DNA from: a virus
Lineage: Duplodnaviria > Heunggongvirae > Uroviricota > Caudoviricetes
IMG/VR virus record: IMGVR_UViG_2617270940_000002
Location: 1 to 7,808 of that record
Length of the DNA stretch: 7,808 bases
Strand: one strand, 5' to 3'
Shown here: in pieces, positions 1 to 7,808 of the stretch
How positions within the stretch are numbered: the stretch's first letter is position 1
Layout: each line of letters opens with the position of its first letter
The notes under the pieces: model-generated
What the model saw: the letters and a program-made list of their open reading frames with translations, nothing else
Databases searched by the model: none
Told to the model about the DNA's origin: nothing
Program-made: the position numbers and the translations under genes

Positions 1-436
1 CTCGCGCATACAACCGGGCAGCGATGTGATTGTCTGCGCTGAAATGGACGAACAGTGGGGCTACGTAGGTGCTAAATCACGTCAGCGCTGGCTGTTTTAC
101 GCGTATGACAGGCTCCGGAAGACGGTTGTGGCGCACGTCTTCGGTGAACGCACTCTGGCCACACTGGAGCGTCTTCTGAGCCTGCTGTCGGCCTTTGACG
201 TGGTGATATGGATGACGGATGGCTGGCCGCTGTATGAATCCCGCCTGAAGGGAAAGCTGCACGTAATCAGCAAGCGTTACACTCAGCGCATTGAGCGACA
301 TAATCTGAATCTGAGACAACATCTGGCAAGGCTGGGACGGAAGTCACTGTCGTTCTCAAAATCGGTGGAGCTGCATGACAAAGTCATCGGGCATTATCTG
401 AACATAAAACACTATCAGTAAGTTGGAGTCATTACC
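1..436 (+). mobile_element. IS1-family insertion sequence, partial copy (3' ~436 bp, cut by window edge) with terminal inverted repeat at inner end (~414-436)
   Basis: Frame 2-421 translates to the C-terminal part of IS1 InsB; the element ends ...CAGTAAGTTGGAGTCATTACC at 436, the reverse complement of the IS1 terminal IR GGTAATGACTCCAACTTACTG; an exact inverted duplicate lies at 7373-7808. Confidence 0.9.
2..421 (+). CDS. insB: IS1 transposase InsB, C-terminal portion (5' end outside window)
   Basis: Translation ...[30 protein letters not shown]...[15 protein letters not shown] matches IS1 InsB; the frame stays open to the window start; stop at 419-421. Confidence 0.85.
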
Positions 437-472
437 GGCGACACCCGTTGTTAACTTATCCATGGATTTCAT
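437..472 (-). pseudogene. essD: pinholin (S21/EssD-family) 5' fragment, first 12 codons only, truncated by IS1 insertion
   Basis: Minus-strand ATG at 472-470 preceded by SD GAGGTGGGG; translation MKSMDKLTTGVA carries the dual-start MKSM motif of the phage 21 S holin/EssD and runs directly into the IS1 end at 436; position matches essD next to nmpC in DLP12. Confidence 0.5.
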
Positions 473-600
473 AACCCCACCTCGCAGACAAAGCGGGTGT
501 AAATTGAGGGAATACAACGTATCGCAAAAAAGCAGAAACGTAACAGACTCGGAGTCAGTGAATAACTCAGGTATTGGGTTATCAGCTAATATCGAGACTC

Positions 601-633
601 AAAAAATGGAAAAACCCGCTCGACGGCGGGTTT
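601..633 (-). terminator. intrinsic terminator-like hairpin with U-tract (minus-strand orientation), ~130 bp upstream of the essD fragment
   Basis: Stem 612-619/626-633 (AAACCCGC/GCGGGTTT, 5 GC pairs) with loop TCGACG; on the minus strand it is followed by UUCCAUUUUUU (611-601); the plus-strand tail has only 3 T. Confidence 0.4.
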
Positions 634-639
634 AAGCTG

Positions 640-1059
640 TGTGACGAAGTAACCACTCTTAACAGCATAACCAATTTTTTACGTACGTAAACCACTAAAT
701 GATATTTGCGAGAATGCTACCGAGTATTGAAAACACCACTACAAATACATAAGCAAATCTCAACAAATAACCAACAAATAATTTCCAGCGTTATTTTTAG
801 CTGGTTTAAATTGAATCTTCAAATTATAGAGCACTTATAAATAACAGCCATTAATATAAATTGGCTAATAGATTTATTTTTATTCAGCCAAGAGCCATGA
901 ATAGGATTCGATAGAAAAAGTTCAGATAAAAATAGAGATCTACTTCACAAATCAAATGAGAAACCAAAACTTACATCTTGAAATAATCACATTGATTAGA
1001 TGAATATTTATCGCGCAGTGACATCATTTTTTAATAATAGTTCAAAAAAAGGGCTCACG
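640..1059. promoter_or_regulatory. AT-rich divergent regulatory region between porin start and the late-operon terminator; exact promoters unresolved
   Basis: ~420 bp, strongly AT-rich, no ORF of 60 aa or more; porin SD AAGGG at 1049-1053; tandem 11-bp repeat at 760-781; TATAAT hexamer on the minus strand at 828-823; no convincing -35/-10 pair found by eye. Confidence 0.3.
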
Positions 1060-2142
1060 ATGAAAAAATTAACAGTGGCAATTTCTGCTGTAGCTGCATC
1101 AGTACTGATGGCGATGTCTGCTCAGGCAGCTGAAATTTATAATAAAGACAGTAACAAGCTGGATCTGTACGGGAAAGTTAATGCTAAGCACTACTTCTCC
1201 TCTAATGATGCAGATGATGGTGATACTACTTATGCCCGTCTTGGCTTCAAAGGTGAAACCCAAATCAACGATCAACTGACTGGTTTCGGTCAGTGGGAAT
1301 ATGAATTCAAAGGCAACCGCGCTGAATCTCAAGGTTCCTCCAAAGATAAAACCCGTCTTGCCTTCGCTGGCCTGAAATTCGGTGACTACGGCTCCATCGA
1401 TTATGGCCGTAACTACGGTGTAGCATACGACATCGGTGCGTGGACTGACGTTCTGCCAGAATTCGGTGGCGATACCTGGACCCAAACAGATGTATTCATG
1501 ACTGGTCGCACCACAGGTGTTGCAACTTATCGTAACAACGACTTCTTTGGTCTGGTTGATGGCCTGAACTTTGCAGCTCAGTATCAGGGCAAAAATGACC
1601 GAAATGAAGTAACTGAAGCTAATGGCGATGGTTTCGGTTTCTCAACTACTTATGAGTATGAAGGATTCGGCGTGGGTGCAACCTATGCTAAATCTGATCG
1701 CACTAATAATCAGGTTATCTACGGTAACAACGGTCTGAATGCTTCTGGTCAAAATGCTGAAGTATGGGCAGCTGGTCTGAAATATGATGCGAACAACATC
1801 TATCTGGCCACCACCTATTCTGAAACCCAGAACATGACTGTTTTTGGTAATAACCATATTGCCAACAAAGCACAAAACTTCGAAGCTGTTGCACAATATC
1901 AGTTCGACTTCGGCCTGCGTCCATCCGTTGCTTACCTGCATTCTAAAGGAAAAGACTTGGGTGTTTGGGGTGATCAGGACCTGGTTGAATATGTTGATGT
2001 AGGTGCAACCTATTACTTCAACAAAAATATGTCCACTTTTGTTGACTACAAAATCAACCTGATTGATAAGAGCGATTTCACGAAAGCATCTGGCGTTGCT
2101 ACCGATGATATCGTTGCTGTAGGTATGGTTTACCAGTTCTAA
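1060..2142 (+). CDS. nmpC: phage-encoded outer-membrane porin, OmpC/OmpF superfamily (NmpC/Lc type), intact, 360 aa with signal peptide
   Basis: ATG 1060 with SD 6 nt upstream; signal peptide [23 protein letters not shown] then AEIYNKD...; C-terminal ...VAVGMVYQF ends in Phe as in beta-barrel porins; convergent with the Q gene as in DLP12. The ORF-track start at 1000 is an upstream in-frame extension. Confidence 0.9.
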
Positions 2143-2305
2143 TTTGATTACTAAAAGATATGTTGTGGGAGGCTTTGCCTCCCCAACATATAAGTGGCTC
2201 CCTCAAGCCACTTCCTTTAGAAGCACAACCTTGCTTCTAACTATACAAACCTTCTGTTATATATTACCCTTTATTTTTGGGGGCGTTTCAACGCCCCATT
2301 TTTAA
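2143..2305 (+). ncRNA. structured 3' region immediately downstream of the porin stop, candidate IpeX-like sRNA / 3'UTR
   Basis: Three strong consecutive hairpins (2158-2191, 15-bp stem with one bulge; 2192-2213, 8-bp stem; 2217-2240, 9-bp stem) then a terminator at 2280-2303; IpeX is described as lying immediately downstream of the nmpC stop codon and ~167 nt long, and this span is ~163 nt. Confidence 0.35.
2280..2303 (+). terminator. rho-independent terminator (plus strand) ending the porin/3'UTR transcript
   Basis: GC stem GGGGCG (2280-2285) / CGCCCC (2292-2297), loop TTTCAA, followed by A-TTTTT (2298-2303). Confidence 0.55.
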
Positions 2306-2330
2306 TAACTTTTAGTAAATAATTGGCGTA

Positions 2331-2714
2331 TTAATTAGAGTTATTAACAACGATATCCATCTCTAACCGGATATCTAATGCCATTAACATCCCTTCAATT
2401 ATGCCCTCAGCCTTCTGTAACCTTTTCCCGATATAACCATCAGAGCAGCAATGCTTACCTGCCAGTGACATGAATGTCATACCGACTACATAATAATCTA
2501 CTAATAAATCGTGCAAATCGCTGTTGTTCTTTTTCAGACGGGCCATGCACCCGCAAATGATCATCGCGTCATCGTCACAACATTGCGGGCGAGATTTTAC
2601 TTTTGAAGTAATTAATCCCTTAAAACCGGCGGCAATGGACGACCAGGTCACATCTTCATGATTATTAGCCGCCCACGCTCCCCAACGCTCAAGAACCATC
2701 TGAATATCACGCAT
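2331..2714 (-). CDS. quuD: late-gene antiterminator Q (DLP12 QuuD type), 127 aa
   Basis: Translation [26 protein letters not shown]...[16 protein letters not shown]... recognised as QuuD; ATG at 2714 with SD GGAG 8 nt upstream; the ORF-track start at 2729 is an in-frame TTG extension. Confidence 0.85.
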
Positions 2715-2799
2715 CAACTTACTCCACAAAAATCAGACCAGAACGCCAATTACAAGCAAAAATCAACGAAACAGTATTAGTTGATTGTTATCTCTGACT

Positions 2800-2940
2800 T
2801 CATACTCCTGCTCCTGTCAGGGTTTTGGCGTAATTCTTCAGTATTCGGTAATCGGTCAAAACAGAACCGGGGAAACGATATAAGCGCAGACGCCCCCAGC
2901 GGTGGCGAAGACGTTCTGCCATATAAAACTCAAACATCAT
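2800..2940 (-). CDS. ylcG: small protein YlcG-like (46 aa)
   Basis: Hand translation [46 protein letters not shown]; its ATG overlaps the rusA stop (ATGA at 2940-2937); size and position match ylcG between rusA and quuD in DLP12; below the ORF-track size cutoff. Confidence 0.6.
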
Positions 2941-3299
2941 TCATTCCCCATTTCGGTGATGGTCAGTTCCAGCCTCCCACCTTTGGTAACAGGCATCTTC
3001 ACAACGCGGTAATCAACGACCTGAGCATCATCCAGCCAGAAACCTGCTTTAGTGAGTGCGTCAAAAGCGGCTTTTTGCAGATTATCCAGGTCACGGCGAC
3101 GGCGATCCGGCATGTGGCACTCAATGCGGATTTTCACAGGCATAGCCAGGCCGATATCCAGCATTGCGTTTTTAATGATTCGGGCGACGTTATCGCGGTA
3201 TGCCTGCCCCTCTGCGCTGACGTGCGTGCGCCCGCGATTATGGCGGTAATAGCGATTATTGCTCGGAGGCCAGGGTAATGTGATGCTGTAGGTATTCAC
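2937..3299 (-). CDS. rusA: Holliday junction resolvase RusA (crossover junction endodeoxyribonuclease), 120 aa
   Basis: Translation [23 protein letters not shown]...[30 protein letters not shown]... recognised as RusA; GTG start overlapping the ybcO stop (GTGA). Confidence 0.9.
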
Positions 3300-3586
3300 G
3301 CCTTAATAACCCCCTCTTTCAGCCAGATAACCTGTGTTCTCGCCATACCTTCCAGCGCGCATTCTTTTGCATATGCAGCATCGACAAAATGTGTGCGGCG
3401 GTCGATTTCGTCGTGGCAGGCAGAACATGCAATGGTGGCAATCAGGTCTGGCGGTTTGGCACCGGTGCCGCACAATCCAGTCAGCCGGATATGTGCCAGT
3501 ACAGACGTTTCAGGGTTGCCATTACATACGCCAGGGATTCTTACCTGGCATTCCCGACTACGCGCTGCTTTTCTCAAATCAGCCAT
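3296..3586 (-). CDS. ybcO: YbcO-family putative nuclease (DUF1364), 96 aa
   Basis: Translation from ATG 3586: [37 protein letters not shown]...[11 protein letters not shown]..., Cys-rich; the ORF-track start at 3625 is an upstream extension; position between ninE and rusA as in DLP12. Confidence 0.8.
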
Positions 3587-3749
3587 GATTCCTCCTTGCT
3601 GCCAGTCGCAACCATTTTTTATCAACCAGGCTGGCGGTATATCCGAGCAGTGTTGGTATTTCGGAAGGCTTCAGCTCCGGTTTACGCTTACGACGATCTG
3701 GTACTCTGTAGATGTGTCCGTTCATGACACGAATAAGCGGTGTAGCCAT
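3579..3749 (-). CDS. ninE: NinE protein (56 aa)
   Basis: Hand translation [56 protein letters not shown]; its ATG overlaps the ybcN stop (TAATG) and its stop overlaps the ybcO start (ATGGCTGA); below the ORF-track cutoff. Confidence 0.75.
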   Translation of the reverse strand: MATPLIRVMNGHIYRVPDRRKRKPELKPSEIPTLLGYTASLVDKKWLRLAARRNHG

Positions 3750-4204
3750 TACGCCTCCTGCTTGTCGCGGAGCAGCTGGAACTCGCAGCTCTGCGGAATA
3801 GTCAGGTGGCAGCCAATATTCACCGCCCAGGCTTCAACCTTACACAGGAAGACATACATCTCTCCGGTATCAAGATCGGAGGTATGGCGTAACGACTGGA
3901 TAGTGGTGATATCACCGGTTACGACATCAACCAGGTCTTTGGTTTCATAACCGAGATATGTGTGTTTGAGAGCATCTTTTACCCAAGCTGGAGTAGCGAA
4001 CGTTTTACCCCTGCTGATGAGGTATTCACTGATTTCGCTGTACCACATGTGGCTGAGTGCATTCTGGGAAAGACTGCGTTTCTCACGCCACGGTTTAAGC
4101 ACCATGCGAAAGCATTTGCCCTCCTCCAGATAAGGCTGGATCTGCCGACCGATAGCGGTGAAGTTACCGCGATGTAATTTGATGCCATCTTGTGGGAGAT
4201 TCAC
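3749..4204 (-). CDS. ybcN: NinB/Orf-family recombination protein (YbcN-like), 151 aa
   Basis: Translation [15 protein letters not shown]...[21 protein letters not shown]... carries the NinB-like RSL-QN motif; GTG start at 4204 with SD GGAGGTG 5 nt upstream. Confidence 0.85.
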
Positions 4205-4302
4205 GCTTCACCTCCGCAGAGGTCAAACGCTGGATACAATATATCGCAGGTGCATTTCTGCATCTGTGGAGGGAGAAGAGAGTTTGGATTGTGTGTGCGC
4301 AT
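4201..4302 (-). CDS. ylcH: small Cys-containing protein, YlcH-like (33 aa)
   Basis: Hand translation [33 protein letters not shown]; SD GGGGA 6 nt upstream of ATG 4302; stop overlaps the ybcN GTG (GTGA); a 33-aa ORF directly upstream of ybcN matches ylcH in DLP12 by size and position only (sequence not recalled). Confidence 0.45.
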
Positions 4303-4391
4303 AAACGTCCCCGTTTAGCGCAGAAGTCACCGGAGTTGTTCAGGCTCCGATGACATGATTATGGCGAGTTGATTATCGCAAATCAAAGGTT

Positions 4392-4748
4392 TTAATTGTG
4401 CTTTATTCCTTCAAGCGTTGCCTTCATACCAACCAAAGAAATGTTTAGCTCTCCAACTTTCTCAGGGCTATATAATTCAGAATGAAGCCAATATTCTGAT
4501 TTATCTAAACATCTTTTAGCCAGCTCTCGATCAAAGTCTACGACTTGGGAAGACGCTTCATACCAAAGCCTATAAAGTTTTTCTTCTTCGTTTGGGTTAT
4601 TAGGCTCACCACGTTTTAATTTTTCAGTATATAAAATTGTTGAATAAATCGCAGGAGTTAATCCAGTGATTGCCCTCTGCCGCAGATCGGATTTGTTTGT
4701 TATCCACCCCAACAGACGATCTCCCATCCATGTGATAATTGTATCCAT
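4392..4748 (-). CDS. hypothetical protein, 118 aa, no family recognised
   Basis: ORF MDTIITWMGDRLLGWITNKSDL...EPNNPNEEEKLYRLWYEASSQVVDFDRELAKR...; ATG at 4748 with SD-like AAGAAGGG ~9 nt upstream; AT-rich like the recombinase; occupies the position taken by ybcM in E. coli K-12. Confidence 0.5.
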   Translation of the reverse strand: MDTIITWMGDRLLGWITNKSDLRQRAITGLTPAIYSTILYTEKLKRGEPNNPNEEEKLYRLWYEASSQVVDFDRELAKRCLDKSEYWLHSELYSPEKVGELNISLVGMKATLEGIKHN

Positions 4749-5209
4749 GCTTTAGCCCTTCTTAGTAAATAGTGTGTAGGGCGACTGAAGGACCGAGTTT
4801 ATGCTTTTTCGCATTGCTTTCAGTTAGTACACCGGTATCGCACCGGAAACAATCCTACGGCAAATTGGTTGTCTGACCTCTCGGTTTTTCGTGCATTAAC
4901 CGATACCCACTACAGTCTCGGCGAAAGCTGCACACCCCCAGGGTGTACTGGTAGCACTCGGCACAGCCTAGCACGCCACTTTCTTCTCACTATCCAGTCT
5001 AATTTTATCCCCTAGTCAGACACTCAGATGTAGTGCTCCGCAGCGGCATGCGGGGGAATACAAAAACTCGGACAAAATTGGGCCCTCCTTTTTGAATCAC
5101 TCGCGGGGATGTAGTTATTAATACATGGAAAAAGATCTGTTTTCAAATCCAACATTATATGGTTTCAATACCACGGGGTGGCTATGTGTTTCTCATTGTT
5201 AATTGGAAT

Positions 5210-5533
5210 CTACTGTAATCGATCCGAACGTAAATGCGGCAAAACTCGACTCCACTTATCATCCTGCCACGGCCGGAATTTTACATGTGCCGTTTCTCTG
5301 GCAAGGATTGCCTGTGCCTTATTGAGTATCTGGGGATATTCTTGCTCGATAGAAGTGAAGCGACCAGCTTCACGATGCTCCGCAACCTGAAGAAGAGGAG
5401 TAACGTTCTGGTAGGTAATTAACATCACATTCCCTGCTCGCCATAACCAGGCGAGTGTGCAAAGTTCGTTATCAGTGAATTGTTTTGTGATTGGGTATTG
5501 TTGAACTGCTAGAACGAGAACGCCAGCATCCAT
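5210..5533 (-). CDS. hypothetical protein, 107 aa, no family recognised
   Basis: ORF MDAGVLVLAVQQYPITKQFTDNELCTLAWLWRAGNVMLITYQ...; weak SD (GAGA); longest ORF in the region, overlapped by two shorter plus-strand ORFs; starts 111 bp downstream of the recombinase stop. Confidence 0.4.
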   Translation of the reverse strand: MDAGVLVLAVQQYPITKQFTDNELCTLAWLWRAGNVMLITYQNVTPLLQVAEHREAGRFTSIEQEYPQILNKAQAILARETAHVKFRPWQDDKWSRVLPHLRSDRLQ

Positions 5534-5644
5534 TGGCAGTCTCTATAGTAAAACCATAGCTCAGGACGCTTCGTTCAGGATAGATAATTTTATTGTACTT
5601 ACCTAACTTTCTTACTATAGCACGGTTGAAAAAGTGATTATTAC

Positions 5645-7171
5645 TCAAAAATAAACCTCACCATCAACCATATATTTGAGAGTACTTATCGCCTGCTGGG
5701 CGGATATTGTTTTCATTAAAGGATAGTGTTTAAAAACAATGCCATTCATAAAATAGATATCACAGGTTTTATTATCTGTATTGATTATGATTTTTTCGAA
5801 TGTTTTATAGGCAAGTGTACGACATAGCTCTCGCCCATTTTTACTGGTTAAGTCAATAGCATGAAAATCACCAAGTGAACTCACCGCTTTACTCTTCAAA
5901 GTTTTTAATGATACAGAAGCCCTTCGTAATTCCTTATCTAATACTCTGATTTTTTCTGCTATAGCGGTAACTTCAGGCGCAACAGATAATGCAGCAATTA
6001 AATTATTAATTTTCATCTGGAGCTCAATAATTTTCAACTCTAAAGTTTCATTAGCATCTTTCTTGTTTTCAACTGGTTGGATTTTACTACAATTAAAAAG
6101 CAACTCATTAATGATATTATAATCAACCAAATCTCTCTTTATTGATGGCCTGTCACATCGATGGAGTCTTCTCATCGGACAAACATAATAGCCATGCAAA
6201 CTTCCAGATACCGCATGAACAATCATGGTATTACCACAAGCCTCGCACTTCATAACTGTTCGAAGTAGATTTACCAACATAGGATTTTTGCTACTATTGC
6301 TAATACCAAAAGGTGCCAACCGAATTTCCTGTACAGCGTAAAACAAATCATCTGATATGACTCTGGGATAATAGCCAGCGATTTCACTTATTCCTTTACC
6401 TCTTGCACGATATGAAGGTACGCATATACCTATCAGAGCTTTATTCGCTAATAATTTTTCAATTACAGAAGGTCCCCATGCACTTTCTTTTCCTGAGAAA
6501 TTCTTTACAGCATGATCATTTAAATACTTGGCTATTGCATTCAATGAGCGCCTTTCCATCCTGAGTTTAAAAATTAGCTCAATAGTTTTCACCCTGTCGG
6601 GGTCTGGAACAAAAGCCGTTCTTTTGTCATCTAAGGAGAGACATCTCGGACAAGACGCCGTCATAATCGTACCTGATTCCAGTGCATCCTGCCGTTTTTT
6701 CTTCCATGATAATTTAACCCGACTTGACTTTATCTCGCTTTCTTCATTTGCCCTTTGTGCTATAAGTATGGCTTTTATTAATGAATATGGCTCATTCAAA
6801 GAGTCAATATTATAGACTGTATTGTCGCAAAGAGTTATAACATCAATACCGTGATTCAAAATCAATTTCAGACGTTCAATCGCTTCACCGACTTTTTCTC
6901 TTGAAAGTCTGTCCAGACTTTCAACTAACAATGTAGTTCCTGGCAATATATAACCATGCTCTATAGCATCTAAAAATTCCGAAAAAGCTCCTGATTGTGC
7001 ATGCTTTCCTTTGAATGCACTTAATCCTAAATCTTCATATGTTATGGTATCAAGATAATAATCACTATTTACCTTTAACCATTCAGCAATAAGTCTTCTC
7101 TGTCGGTTTAATGAGTCGCCAGACATCTGACCTGGTGATGAAAATCGCATATATGCTATGGCTTTTTTCAT
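5645..7171 (-). CDS. large serine recombinase (resolvase-type catalytic domain + recombinase domain + Zn-ribbon + coiled coil), 508 aa
   Basis: N-terminus AIAYMRFSSPGQ...RQRR fits the serine-recombinase active-site pattern (Y-x-R-x-S-S-x-x-Q); Cys pairs CPRC and CEAC...CPMRRLHRC; C-terminal heptad-rich region (ELKIIELQMKINNLIAAL); SD AGGTG before ATG 7171; strongly AT-rich. Same length and relative position as ybcK in DLP12, but the sequence was not verified. Confidence 0.85.
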   Translation of the reverse strand: MKKAIAYMRFSSPGQMSGDSLNRQRRLIAEWLKVNSDYYLDTITYEDLGLSAFKGKHAQSGAFSEFLDAIEHGYILPGTTLLVESLDRLSREKVGEAIERLKLILNHGIDVITLCDNTVYNIDSLNEPYSLIKAILIAQRANEESEIKSSRVKLSWKKKRQDALESGTIMTASCPRCLSLDDKRTAFVPDPDRVKTIELIFKLRMERRSLNAIAKYLNDHAVKNFSGKESAWGPSVIEKLLANKALIGICVPSYRARGKGISEIAGYYPRVISDDLFYAVQEIRLAPFGISNSSKNPMLVNLLRTVMKCEACGNTMIVHAVSGSLHGYYVCPMRRLHRCDRPSIKRDLVDYNIINELLFNCSKIQPVENKKDANETLELKIIELQMKINNLIAALSVAPEVTAIAEKIRVLDKELRRASVSLKTLKSKAVSSLGDFHAIDLTSKNGRELCRTLAYKTFEKIIINTDNKTCDIYFMNGIVFKHYPLMKTISAQQAISTLKYMVDGEVYF

Positions 7172-7372
7172 GGTGACACCTGCTAACGTATGCTTTTATA
7201 AACCTTAGTGGTGGGATATAATTTTTGTTTAATTTTTATTTAAAAAGACAATTAAGGTCACATTATCTTGAATATACAACAATAATCGTATTGCAATTTT
7301 CTTACGCCATAATCTTGAAAGCACAAAAGAATACATAAAAAAAATAAAGACATTAACAAAAAGCATAAAACG

Positions 7373-7808
7373 GGTAATGACTCCAACTTACTGATAGTGT
7401 TTTATGTTCAGATAATGCCCGATGACTTTGTCATGCAGCTCCACCGATTTTGAGAACGACAGTGACTTCCGTCCCAGCCTTGCCAGATGTTGTCTCAGAT
7501 TCAGATTATGTCGCTCAATGCGCTGAGTGTAACGCTTGCTGATTACGTGCAGCTTTCCCTTCAGGCGGGATTCATACAGCGGCCAGCCATCCGTCATCCA
7601 TATCACCACGTCAAAGGCCGACAGCAGGCTCAGAAGACGCTCCAGTGTGGCCAGAGTGCGTTCACCGAAGACGTGCGCCACAACCGTCTTCCGGAGCCTG
7701 TCATACGCGTAAAACAGCCAGCGCTGACGTGATTTAGCACCTACGTAGCCCCACTGTTCGTCCATTTCAGCGCAGACAATCACATCGCTGCCCGGTTGTA
7801 TGCGCGAG
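7373..7808 (-). mobile_element. IS1-family insertion sequence, partial copy, exact inverted duplicate of 1-436, terminal IR at inner end (7373-7395)
   Basis: Begins GGTAATGACTCCAACTTACTGATAGTG at 7373; 7373-7808 is the reverse complement of 1-436 (spot-checked at both ends; InsB translations identical). Confidence 0.9.
7388..7807 (-). CDS. insB: IS1 transposase InsB, C-terminal portion (5' end outside window)
   Basis: Translation identical to the left-copy InsB fragment; frame open to the window end. Confidence 0.85.

Follow-up and report, generated by a model that had tools for sequence, protein, structure and literature searches.

A predicted structured RNA of about 330 nt beside a variable accessory-gene slot in lambda-like prophages of Enterobacterales

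The locus between ybcK and ninB

The stretch of DNA analyzed here (the window; 7,808 nt, positions 1 to 7,808 of IMG/VR record IMGVR_UViG_2617270940_000002) is a DLP12-like lambda-type prophage segment of Escherichia coli with a copy of IS1 at either end. On its minus strand, the serine recombinase gene ybcK (5645-7171) is followed by an open reading frame (ORF) of 107 amino acids (aa; 5210-5533), a gap of 461 bases (4749-5209) and an orphan gene of 118 aa (4392-4748), beyond which come, in the order of transcription, ybcN/ninB, ninE, ybcO, rusA, ylcG and quuD; the porin gene of the window lies on the plus strand, opposite to the genes from ybcK to quuD. The gap was found to harbor a conserved element with a core of 330 nt (4781-5110, minus strand; 5′ AUCCCCGCGAG ... 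CCUUCAGUCGC 3′), which was delimited by conservation and which is very probably a real structured RNA gene on the minus strand.

The original prediction had described the gap as a GC-rich island that was devoid of any ORF of 60 aa or more, interrupted a string of minus-strand genes and possibly contained a structured RNA or a decayed gene. The lack of such an ORF was borne out, the largest ones inside the gap being of 48 aa (4869-5015, plus strand) and 43 aa (5024-5155, minus strand); a 70-aa ORF of the plus strand begins only at 5178 and leaves the gap. The richness in GC was modest, with 50.9% in the core and 46.2% over the gap as a whole; the values were 46.9% for the 107-aa ORF, 38.1% for the 118-aa ORF and 32.3% for the right-hand end of the gap (5111-5209). 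The element does not interrupt the gene string but forms a separate module in the same orientation as its neighbor genes.

A two-domain fold with compensatory changes

RNAalifold, run on 3, 21 and 27 sequences, returned the same two-domain fold each time. The fold was tested on alignment A5 (27 distinct sequences, 334 columns), in which it comprises 105 pairs in 19 helices. Standard pairs were found in 96.1% of the cells, as against 34-43% when the 3′ partners were slid by 1-3 columns, and 30 pairs were changed on both sides, as against 4-8 in the slid controls; the covariation score was 0.256 compared with about 0.06 in the controls, and 0 of 500 shuffles reached the observed values. Several pairs occurred as three or four pair types. 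The covariation check across homologous loci, which had been proposed together with the original prediction, thus gave helix-keeping compensatory changes well above the controls, and this is the generic criterion for a structured RNA.

Domain 1 (RNA nt 1-104; 5007-5110, minus strand) contains helices 1-5, arranged as a closing helix AUCCCC/GGGGAU with two arms, and holds a nearly invariant stretch of ~60 nt (UUUUGUCCGAGUUUUUGUAUUCCCCCGCAUGCC). Domain 2 (RNA nt 112-328; 4783-4999, minus strand) contains helices 7-19 with a multi-branched core, and its closing helix reads GACUGG/UCAGUC in the window and GAUUGG/CCAGUC in most relatives. The compensatory changes lie mostly in domain 2 (helices 8, 9, 10, 12, 13 and 18). 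The hairpin of helix 12 (GUACACCC-UGG-GGGUGUGC; 4930-4948, minus strand), in which four pairs were changed on both sides, is the stem ACACCC-CCA-GGGTGT (4933-4947) that had been noticed in the single sequence. Three more motifs had been listed with it and all of them are present in the DNA where they had been placed, but none of the three belongs to the conserved fold: the stems CCGCA/TGCGG and CGGTT/AACCG are lost in homologues and their bases pair elsewhere in the consensus fold, and the GNRA-like "GAAA loop" reads UUUC on the transcribed strand, where it is part of two helices.

When the unpaired columns were scanned for complementary covariation, three adjacent antiparallel pairs were found, extending to a kissing loop of 6 bp. 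It connects CACUAC, in a hairpin loop of domain 1 (5030-5035, minus strand), with GUAGUG, which makes up the entire hairpin loop of helix 13 in domain 2 (4908-4913, minus strand). The window has the variant CACUAC/GUAGUG, and CACCAC/GUGGUG, CGCAAC/GUUGCG and CAUCAC/GUGAUG are seen in other clades; the kissing loop is paired in 98.4% of cells against 12-58% after sliding, and three of its six pairs covary (AU, CG and UA at one position). The contact may hold the two domains together or may join molecules to each other, and as far as the alignment goes the intermolecular arrangement could apply equally.

The cells of the fold contain 239 G·U against 6 A·C, some pairs are invariant G·U, and the reverse (plus) strand pairs in only 85.5%. 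The excess of G·U over A·C, together with the invariant G·U pairs, indicates that the transcribed strand is the minus strand of the window. Transcription had originally been placed on the plus strand, from TTGAAT (5092) and TATTAA (5121) with 18 bp between them, and would have run antisense into the 107-aa ORF. Both hexamers are indeed present at these positions; however, TTGAAT lies within the RNA core and is not conserved, being CTGGAT in most relatives, many G·U pairs would become A·C on the plus strand, and the 107-aa ORF is missing from most loci that carry the element, so that such a transcript is extremely improbable. It was also observed that the -10 region (5111-5125) is near-palindromic (GTAGTTATTAATACATG), with TATTAA -10-like on both strands, which is probably why the promoter had been put on the wrong strand.

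Taken together, the 30 covarying pairs, the covarying kissing loop and the unrelated gene contexts described below strongly support the structured-RNA option of the original prediction. The comparison of homologues showed the element to be a gene-sized, self-contained, compactly folded noncoding RNA of ~330 nt with two predicted multi-helix domains.

The element is not a coding sequence and matches no catalogued RNA family

No ORF in the core is common to the homologues. The variable columns are distributed over the three codon phases as 65/49/60, i.e., without codon periodicity, and the indels tolerated in the core are of 1 and 2 nt. These results, together with the compensatory nature of the substitutions within helices and a sequence that is better conserved than the flanking genes, led us to reject the option of a decayed protein-coding gene; the only point in favor of such a pseudogene remnant is that the gene-dense string has no long ORF here, and it is hardly conceivable.

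A near-perfect Shine-Dalgarno-like sequence (AAAGGAGG; RNA nt 19-27, 5084-5092, minus strand) was observed 8 nt before a UUG that opens a frame of 19 codons (MSEFLYSPACRCGALHLSV; RNA nt 36-95, 5016-5075, minus strand) in the most invariant part of the RNA, within domain 1. The element could therefore be read as the gene of a small protein, expressed from this box and the UUG. Hardly any variation is seen in the box, in the spacing or over the first 12 codons, and a 2-nt indel of three loci (L052, L053 and L167) falls in the spacer, outside the ORF. However, a 1-nt deletion in L070 and L090 breaks the frame, a UGA follows after 12 codons in the common E. coli variant L006 (by reading of the alignment), synonymous positions are as invariant as the others, and the bases of the frame form helices 3-5 with G·U pairs and compensatory changes. 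A small-protein gene is therefore very improbable, and from the alignment we do not think that the frame is translated into a functional peptide; the exposed GGAGG of the Shine-Dalgarno-like box might instead contact the ribosome or a protein.

The Rfam check that had been suggested found no catalogued family for the element: Rfam 15 gave no match to it in the window at the gathering score, none in the core at E ≤ 10 and none in five other clades at E ≤ 1. A scan for tRNA and tmRNA found none, neither tandem nor direct repeats were detected in 4700-5260 (Tandem Repeats Finder and a direct-repeat search), and no description of this RNA was found in the literature searched. An antitermination site of the HK022 put or nut kind was considered and rejected by eye: boxA is missing, the size is wrong, AUGC-GAAAAA-GCAU is only loosely boxB-like, and the conserved terminator that follows immediately speaks against such a site.

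Distribution of the element

The gap sequence was present in 159 of 5426 complete E. coli genomes, in 157 of them at nearly full length, and no annotated feature lay beneath the match in any of the 40 E. coli records listed. Five of the E. coli matches (H55-H59) were observed to span 464 bases against 456 of the query (identity 96-97%), a difference that implies about 8 additional bases there. Four phage records carry the element, namely those of the isolated E. coli phages Turner and IdasGreatGrand and of two Klebsiella phages (78% identity). Another E. coli prophage copy is 83% identical and has very different neighbors, and copies of 65-90% identity, again with differing neighbors, were found in lambda-like prophages of Klebsiella, Enterobacter and Obesumbacterium; those in Obesumbacterium proteus and Enterobacter bugandensis were reached via homologues of the linked 118-aa gene. 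When IMG/VR and the JGI/ENA metagenomes were scanned with conserved blocks of the element, ~100 loci in roughly 20 clusters were obtained. The sequences from IMG/VR, metagenomes, phage records and E. coli genomes form about 20 clusters, over which core identity was 65-100%; with the flanks included the pairwise identity went down to about 62-65%. On either side of the most divergent copy, the sequence is similar to Klebsiella, Enterobacter and phi80-like phages. The insertion site is constant, between the replication genes and ninB, with neighbors that differ.

The element was absent from a plasmid collection. Among GTDB species representatives, a first pattern gave 0 matches and a second gave 10, which fell in unrelated taxa and none of which was re-found by a search with the element. 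Its absence from plasmids and from this one-genome-per-species set indicates a strain-specific prophage cargo of Enterobacterales. Two degenerate patterns designed for more distant relatives gained only L110 and L174-L176, all of the same family, and the family could not be extended past about 65% identity. In sum, the loci showed the putative RNA to be a self-contained module of lambda-like Enterobacterales prophages, lying in the early-right direction and recombining freely with either flank.

Two natural recombinants were observed. In L046 (3060-3390), unrelated sequence takes the place of the RNA's final ~45 nt, starting inside the GCGAAAAAGC hairpin, and in L067 (about 7573-7620) the -35 region is replaced, with the -10 box and the RNA retained.

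Boundaries and transcription signals

The conserved part extends from some 45-60 nt ahead of ATCCCCGCGAG to ...CCAGTCGCC, which corresponds to the core in the window. Upstream of it, a -10-like A/T box (TATTAA / ATTAAT; 5117-5123, minus strand) lies 6-7 nt ahead of the conserved core and aligns with TTTAAT, TTAAAT or TTATAT in relatives, mostly with TG in front. A -35-like hexamer, TTGAAA in the window (5141-5146, minus strand) and TTGAAT, TTGTAT or TTGATA in relatives, was found at a constant distance from this box in nine upstream sequence types, with a spacer of 17-18 nt that varies freely. A fixed distance between hexamers combined with a variable spacer is the pattern of a real promoter, and the element is regarded here as a putative one.

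In most relatives, a strong intrinsic terminator consisting of a stem and 6-8 U (e.g., ACCGCCUCAUGGCGGUAUUUUUUU; stem ACCGCC-UCAU-GGCGGU) follows the RNA, 10-20 nt past the closing helix, and these terminators are mostly homologous among the relatives. The terminator is missing in the lineage of the window and in those of L061, L056, L167 and L172. In the window, the junction from the 3′ end of the RNA to the start codon of the 118-aa gene is 32 nt long (4749-4780, minus strand) and contains a ribosome-binding site (AAGAAGGG); the copies that precede the 118-aa gene share this terminator-less junction.

Genes beside the RNA

The gene upstream of the RNA varies among the loci, and includes an antirepressor fragment, a lipoprotein-like ORF, a gene of the dATP/dGTP pyrophosphohydrolase type (annotated in L002) and others. 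The gene downstream varies as well, with at least six unrelated families: the 118-aa orphan, a 178-aa protein, orphans of 183, 177 and 95 aa, and a DUF1367 protein; ninB usually comes next. Five of these families matched nothing in Pfam or PADLOC, the sixth being DUF1367, and sequence searches of the neighboring proteins against Pfam, PADLOC, PHROGs and PDB yielded only "unknown function". The 118-aa protein belongs to a PHROG of unknown function, and its AlphaFold model is a four-helix bundle without a significant fold match in PDB; HEPN toxins matched this model only at E of about 0.8-1.7, and no Rx4-6H motif was seen. The 178-aa protein has hydrophobic ends. The 177-aa protein of L101 and L070, whose ORF starts ~53 nt after the RNA, had no match in Pfam, PADLOC or PDB by sequence; it was observed to begin with MKNIIIDSNAWNFLF, which resembles the N-terminal acidic motif of PIN-domain nucleases.

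Of 47 IMG/VR loci at which a relative of the 118-aa gene occurs, 46 have the RNA directly upstream, as do eight of nine loci with a relative of the 178-aa gene, down to 53% protein identity. Three further homologues of the 118-aa protein (69-79% identity), including those of O. proteus and E. bugandensis, are also accompanied by the RNA. No such RNA accompanies the more distant homologues of the downstream genes, with identities of 39% and 51%, which shows that the linkage is not obligatory. The RNA of L090 is the most divergent from that of L093, yet their downstream proteins are 95% identical, and in L174 and L176 RNA of the same clade stands beside a different gene; these patterns indicate that the RNA clades and the genes downstream are combined independently of each other.

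The 118-aa gene ends in L010 after 66 codons, and ninB lies nearer by ~137 nt than it does in the window, which points to a deletion; the RNA is intact. At 24 further IMG/VR loci (L134-L157), only residues 1-67 of the 118-aa protein find a match, and the RNA is again intact in all of them. This branch (L010 and L134-L157) matches the E. coli hits H46-H59 at 96-98%, and a PHROG of 66 aa (8527) corresponds to the stump of the 118-aa gene.

Possible modes of action

The conserved unpaired runs of the RNA are short (3-8 nt), and its invariant sequence is concentrated in the junctions and in domain 1. Antisense pairing is disfavored because the conserved single-stranded runs are no longer than this, and the short runs together with the invariant junctions and domain 1 favor action through shape over antisense. 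A stand-alone mode of action that depends on shape has, in our estimate, a chance a little short of even. For the account as a whole, i.e., a stand-alone folded RNA gene acting through its shape, we put the chance at about one half, and it is the best explanation of the predicted features. In a lysogen, the RNA would be made from its own weak promoter of the sigma-70 type, and during lytic growth it would be made within the early-right transcript. In most phages it would end at the strong intrinsic terminator, which would also limit read-through into the adjacent accessory gene, and it would then act by its three-dimensional shape, either bound to a protein of the host or the phage or through self-assembly.

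Several points weigh against this account. The fold statistics count cells and not independent events, and in a narrow, recombining family their independence is overstated; core identity is mostly at least 75%, and there are about ten truly independent lineages. The single-sequence folding energy was no better than that of shuffles (z = -0.22 for the minus and +0.41 for the plus strand), a test that is uninformative for this element. The -10 box is poor, without the canonical -11A/-7T combination, and a consensus promoter and terminator scan of 4300-5700 missed the conserved promoter-like element and gave no terminator after the RNA. Since the window lineage is terminator-less, the RNA there would be the 5′ part of the mRNA of the 118-aa gene unless it is processed. 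Finally, at all loci examined a same-strand ORF follows the RNA within 33-122 nt, too close to have its own promoter, and a role in cis fits this equally well.

The main rival explanation, which is possible though doubtful, holds that the RNA is a cis-acting leader or sensor, riboswitch- or attenuator-like, which together with the terminator sets transcription into the variable downstream accessory gene; this gene may be switched on by a signal such as infection or induction. Besides the closeness of the next ORF, the near-perfect linkage with the 118-aa and 178-aa genes speaks for it, and in at least three terminator-less lineages the 118-aa ORF and the RNA must share a transcript. The order of promoter, folded domain, terminator and gene is likewise that of terminating riboswitches and long leaders, with a kissing loop that ties distant parts together, and long-range kissing loops are common in large riboswitches. 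On the other hand, the six or more unrelated orphan families downstream are unlike the coherent regulated gene set of a riboswitch, and no known aptamer family was matched. No convincing antiterminator was seen either, the only alternative pairing found by eye being GUCGCC with GGCGGU, of 6 bp with 2-3 wobbles, and the terminator stands clear of the closing helix by the distance given above. Moreover, the RNA persists intact beside a shortened downstream gene, where the ORF or its match ends at about 66-67 codons.

It is also conceivable, if rather unlikely, that a modular prophage cassette for defense or for a response to induction has this RNA as its conserved sensor, with one sensor for many effectors. 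The folded RNA and the terminator would then silence a swappable and possibly toxic effector gene, and read-through would occur once a cue was sensed, such as a phage protein, superinfection or a nucleotide messenger. If this proved true, "one sensor, many effectors" would be built from RNA and not from protein.

The layout of promoter, RNA, terminator and small orphan gene is also that of type III toxin-antitoxin systems, and the RNA could serve as the antitoxin, binding and neutralizing the downstream protein, in a toxin-antitoxin or abortive-infection pair of a type III-like or AbiF-like kind. AbiF RNA RCd22 and ToxI are likewise prophage-borne structured RNAs directly upstream of a small accessory gene, and a terminator in between keeps the RNA in excess over the downstream protein, as it would in most relatives here (PMC12373285). 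In the prophage AbiF/RCd22 system of Clostridioides difficile, which has this same layout, the structured noncoding RNA neutralizes the toxin in cis as well as in trans (PMC12373285). Moreover, one downstream family has two putative transmembrane segments and another has a PIN-like IIDSNAW start, both as read from the sequence. However, tandem or direct repeats are absent, whereas ToxI has tandem direct repeats of about 30-40 nt, and no Rfam model of abiF or ToxI was matched. None of the cognate toxins (ToxN/AbiQ, CptN, TenpN, proteins with an Abi_2 domain) was found downstream with Pfam and PADLOC, and no downstream protein matched any toxin family of these two collections. A single RNA that stands beside at least six unrelated, interchangeable proteins, shuffled independently of it, is hard to square with specific recognition, and we consider an antitoxin role to be improbable.

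Comparison with known RNAs and phage modules

With regard to its overall form, the putative stand-alone RNA is comparable to ROOL, GOLLD and OLE, which are likewise large, intricately folded noncoding RNAs with long-range loop-loop contacts. RNAs of this type measure roughly 580-800 nt, and ROOL and GOLLD are often prophage-borne. In contrast, the present RNA did not match their Rfam models, is much smaller and, with its core of 330 nt, falls below the 500-nt criterion, and has its host range in Enterobacterales and not in Firmicutes or lake metagenomes. Ornate RNAs of the ROOL, GOLLD and OLE type are reported to form homo-oligomers (PMC12286853). The kissing loop of the present RNA may likewise be intermolecular, and the RNA may self-assemble into an RNA-only particle like ROOL or GOLLD, which would be compatible with its being a sensor; if so, such a particle would become available in the genetically tractable E. 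coli.

The locus also resembles the phage "morons", in which promoter, gene and terminator are inserted as a self-contained unit between phage genes: it has its own promoter-like element and terminator, it lies in a hypervariable accessory region, and its base composition is unlike that of its neighbors. The cargo, however, is RNA and not protein, and to our knowledge no RNA-only moron of this size has been described in lambdoid phages; none was found in the literature searched. Lambda-like prophages likewise carry the small RNAs DicF, IpeX, IsrK/IsrJ, AsxR/AgvB, P22 sar and P1 c4, some of which lie near antirepressor genes, as does the copy in the window. These are base-pairing RNAs of roughly 60-170 nt with Rfam models, whereas the present RNA had no Rfam match, is at least twice as long and has no single-stranded seed that is both long and conserved.

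Bacterial RNAs that are both large and intricately folded are uncommon, and the majority proved to be ribozymes, riboswitches or parts of machines. The RNA described here has the same hallmarks, i.e., numerous helices with covariation, invariant junctions and a kissing loop that acts over a long range, and it seems to represent a new family of large structured RNAs, absent from Rfam, in an organism that is open to direct functional tests. OLE, ROOL, GOLLD and raiA belong to hosts that are difficult to work with; the home of this RNA in prophages of E. coli and Klebsiella, including phages Turner and IdasGreatGrand, makes its function amenable to standard genetics, and the recombinants L046 and L067 are natural test cases for which of its parts matter. 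The RNA furthermore marks a recombination junction with a hypervariable accessory-gene slot next to it, and this may shed light on how lambda-like phages trade such genes.

Further observations on the window and other carriers

The 107-aa ORF, an antirepressor gene fragment that the RNA of the window adjoins, matches only the C-terminal end of Ant-type antirepressors (P22 antirepressor C-terminal domain, P22_AR_C; positions 245-318 of 319 in PHROG 245). It seems to be the 3′ remainder of a gene that lost its N-terminal part beside ybcK, and it has a PHROG of its own (7640). The element was also considered as a site for the neighboring YbcK serine recombinase, which was rejected since other loci are without ybcK. 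Identical ORFs of IS1 InsB (131 aa) were observed in inverted orientation at 26-421 (plus strand) and 7388-7783 (minus strand), and copies of IS1 thus flank the part of the prophage that runs from the porin gene to ybcK, as they would in a composite transposon or a rearrangement mediated by IS1.

Outside the window, a match to isrJ (RF01393) above the gathering score was observed in L175, a metagenomic prophage, at 3314-3392 (plus strand; 45.3 bits, E = 8e-6), ~2.3 kb downstream of the structured RNA, which indicates that some carriers hold two different prophage RNAs in the same region.

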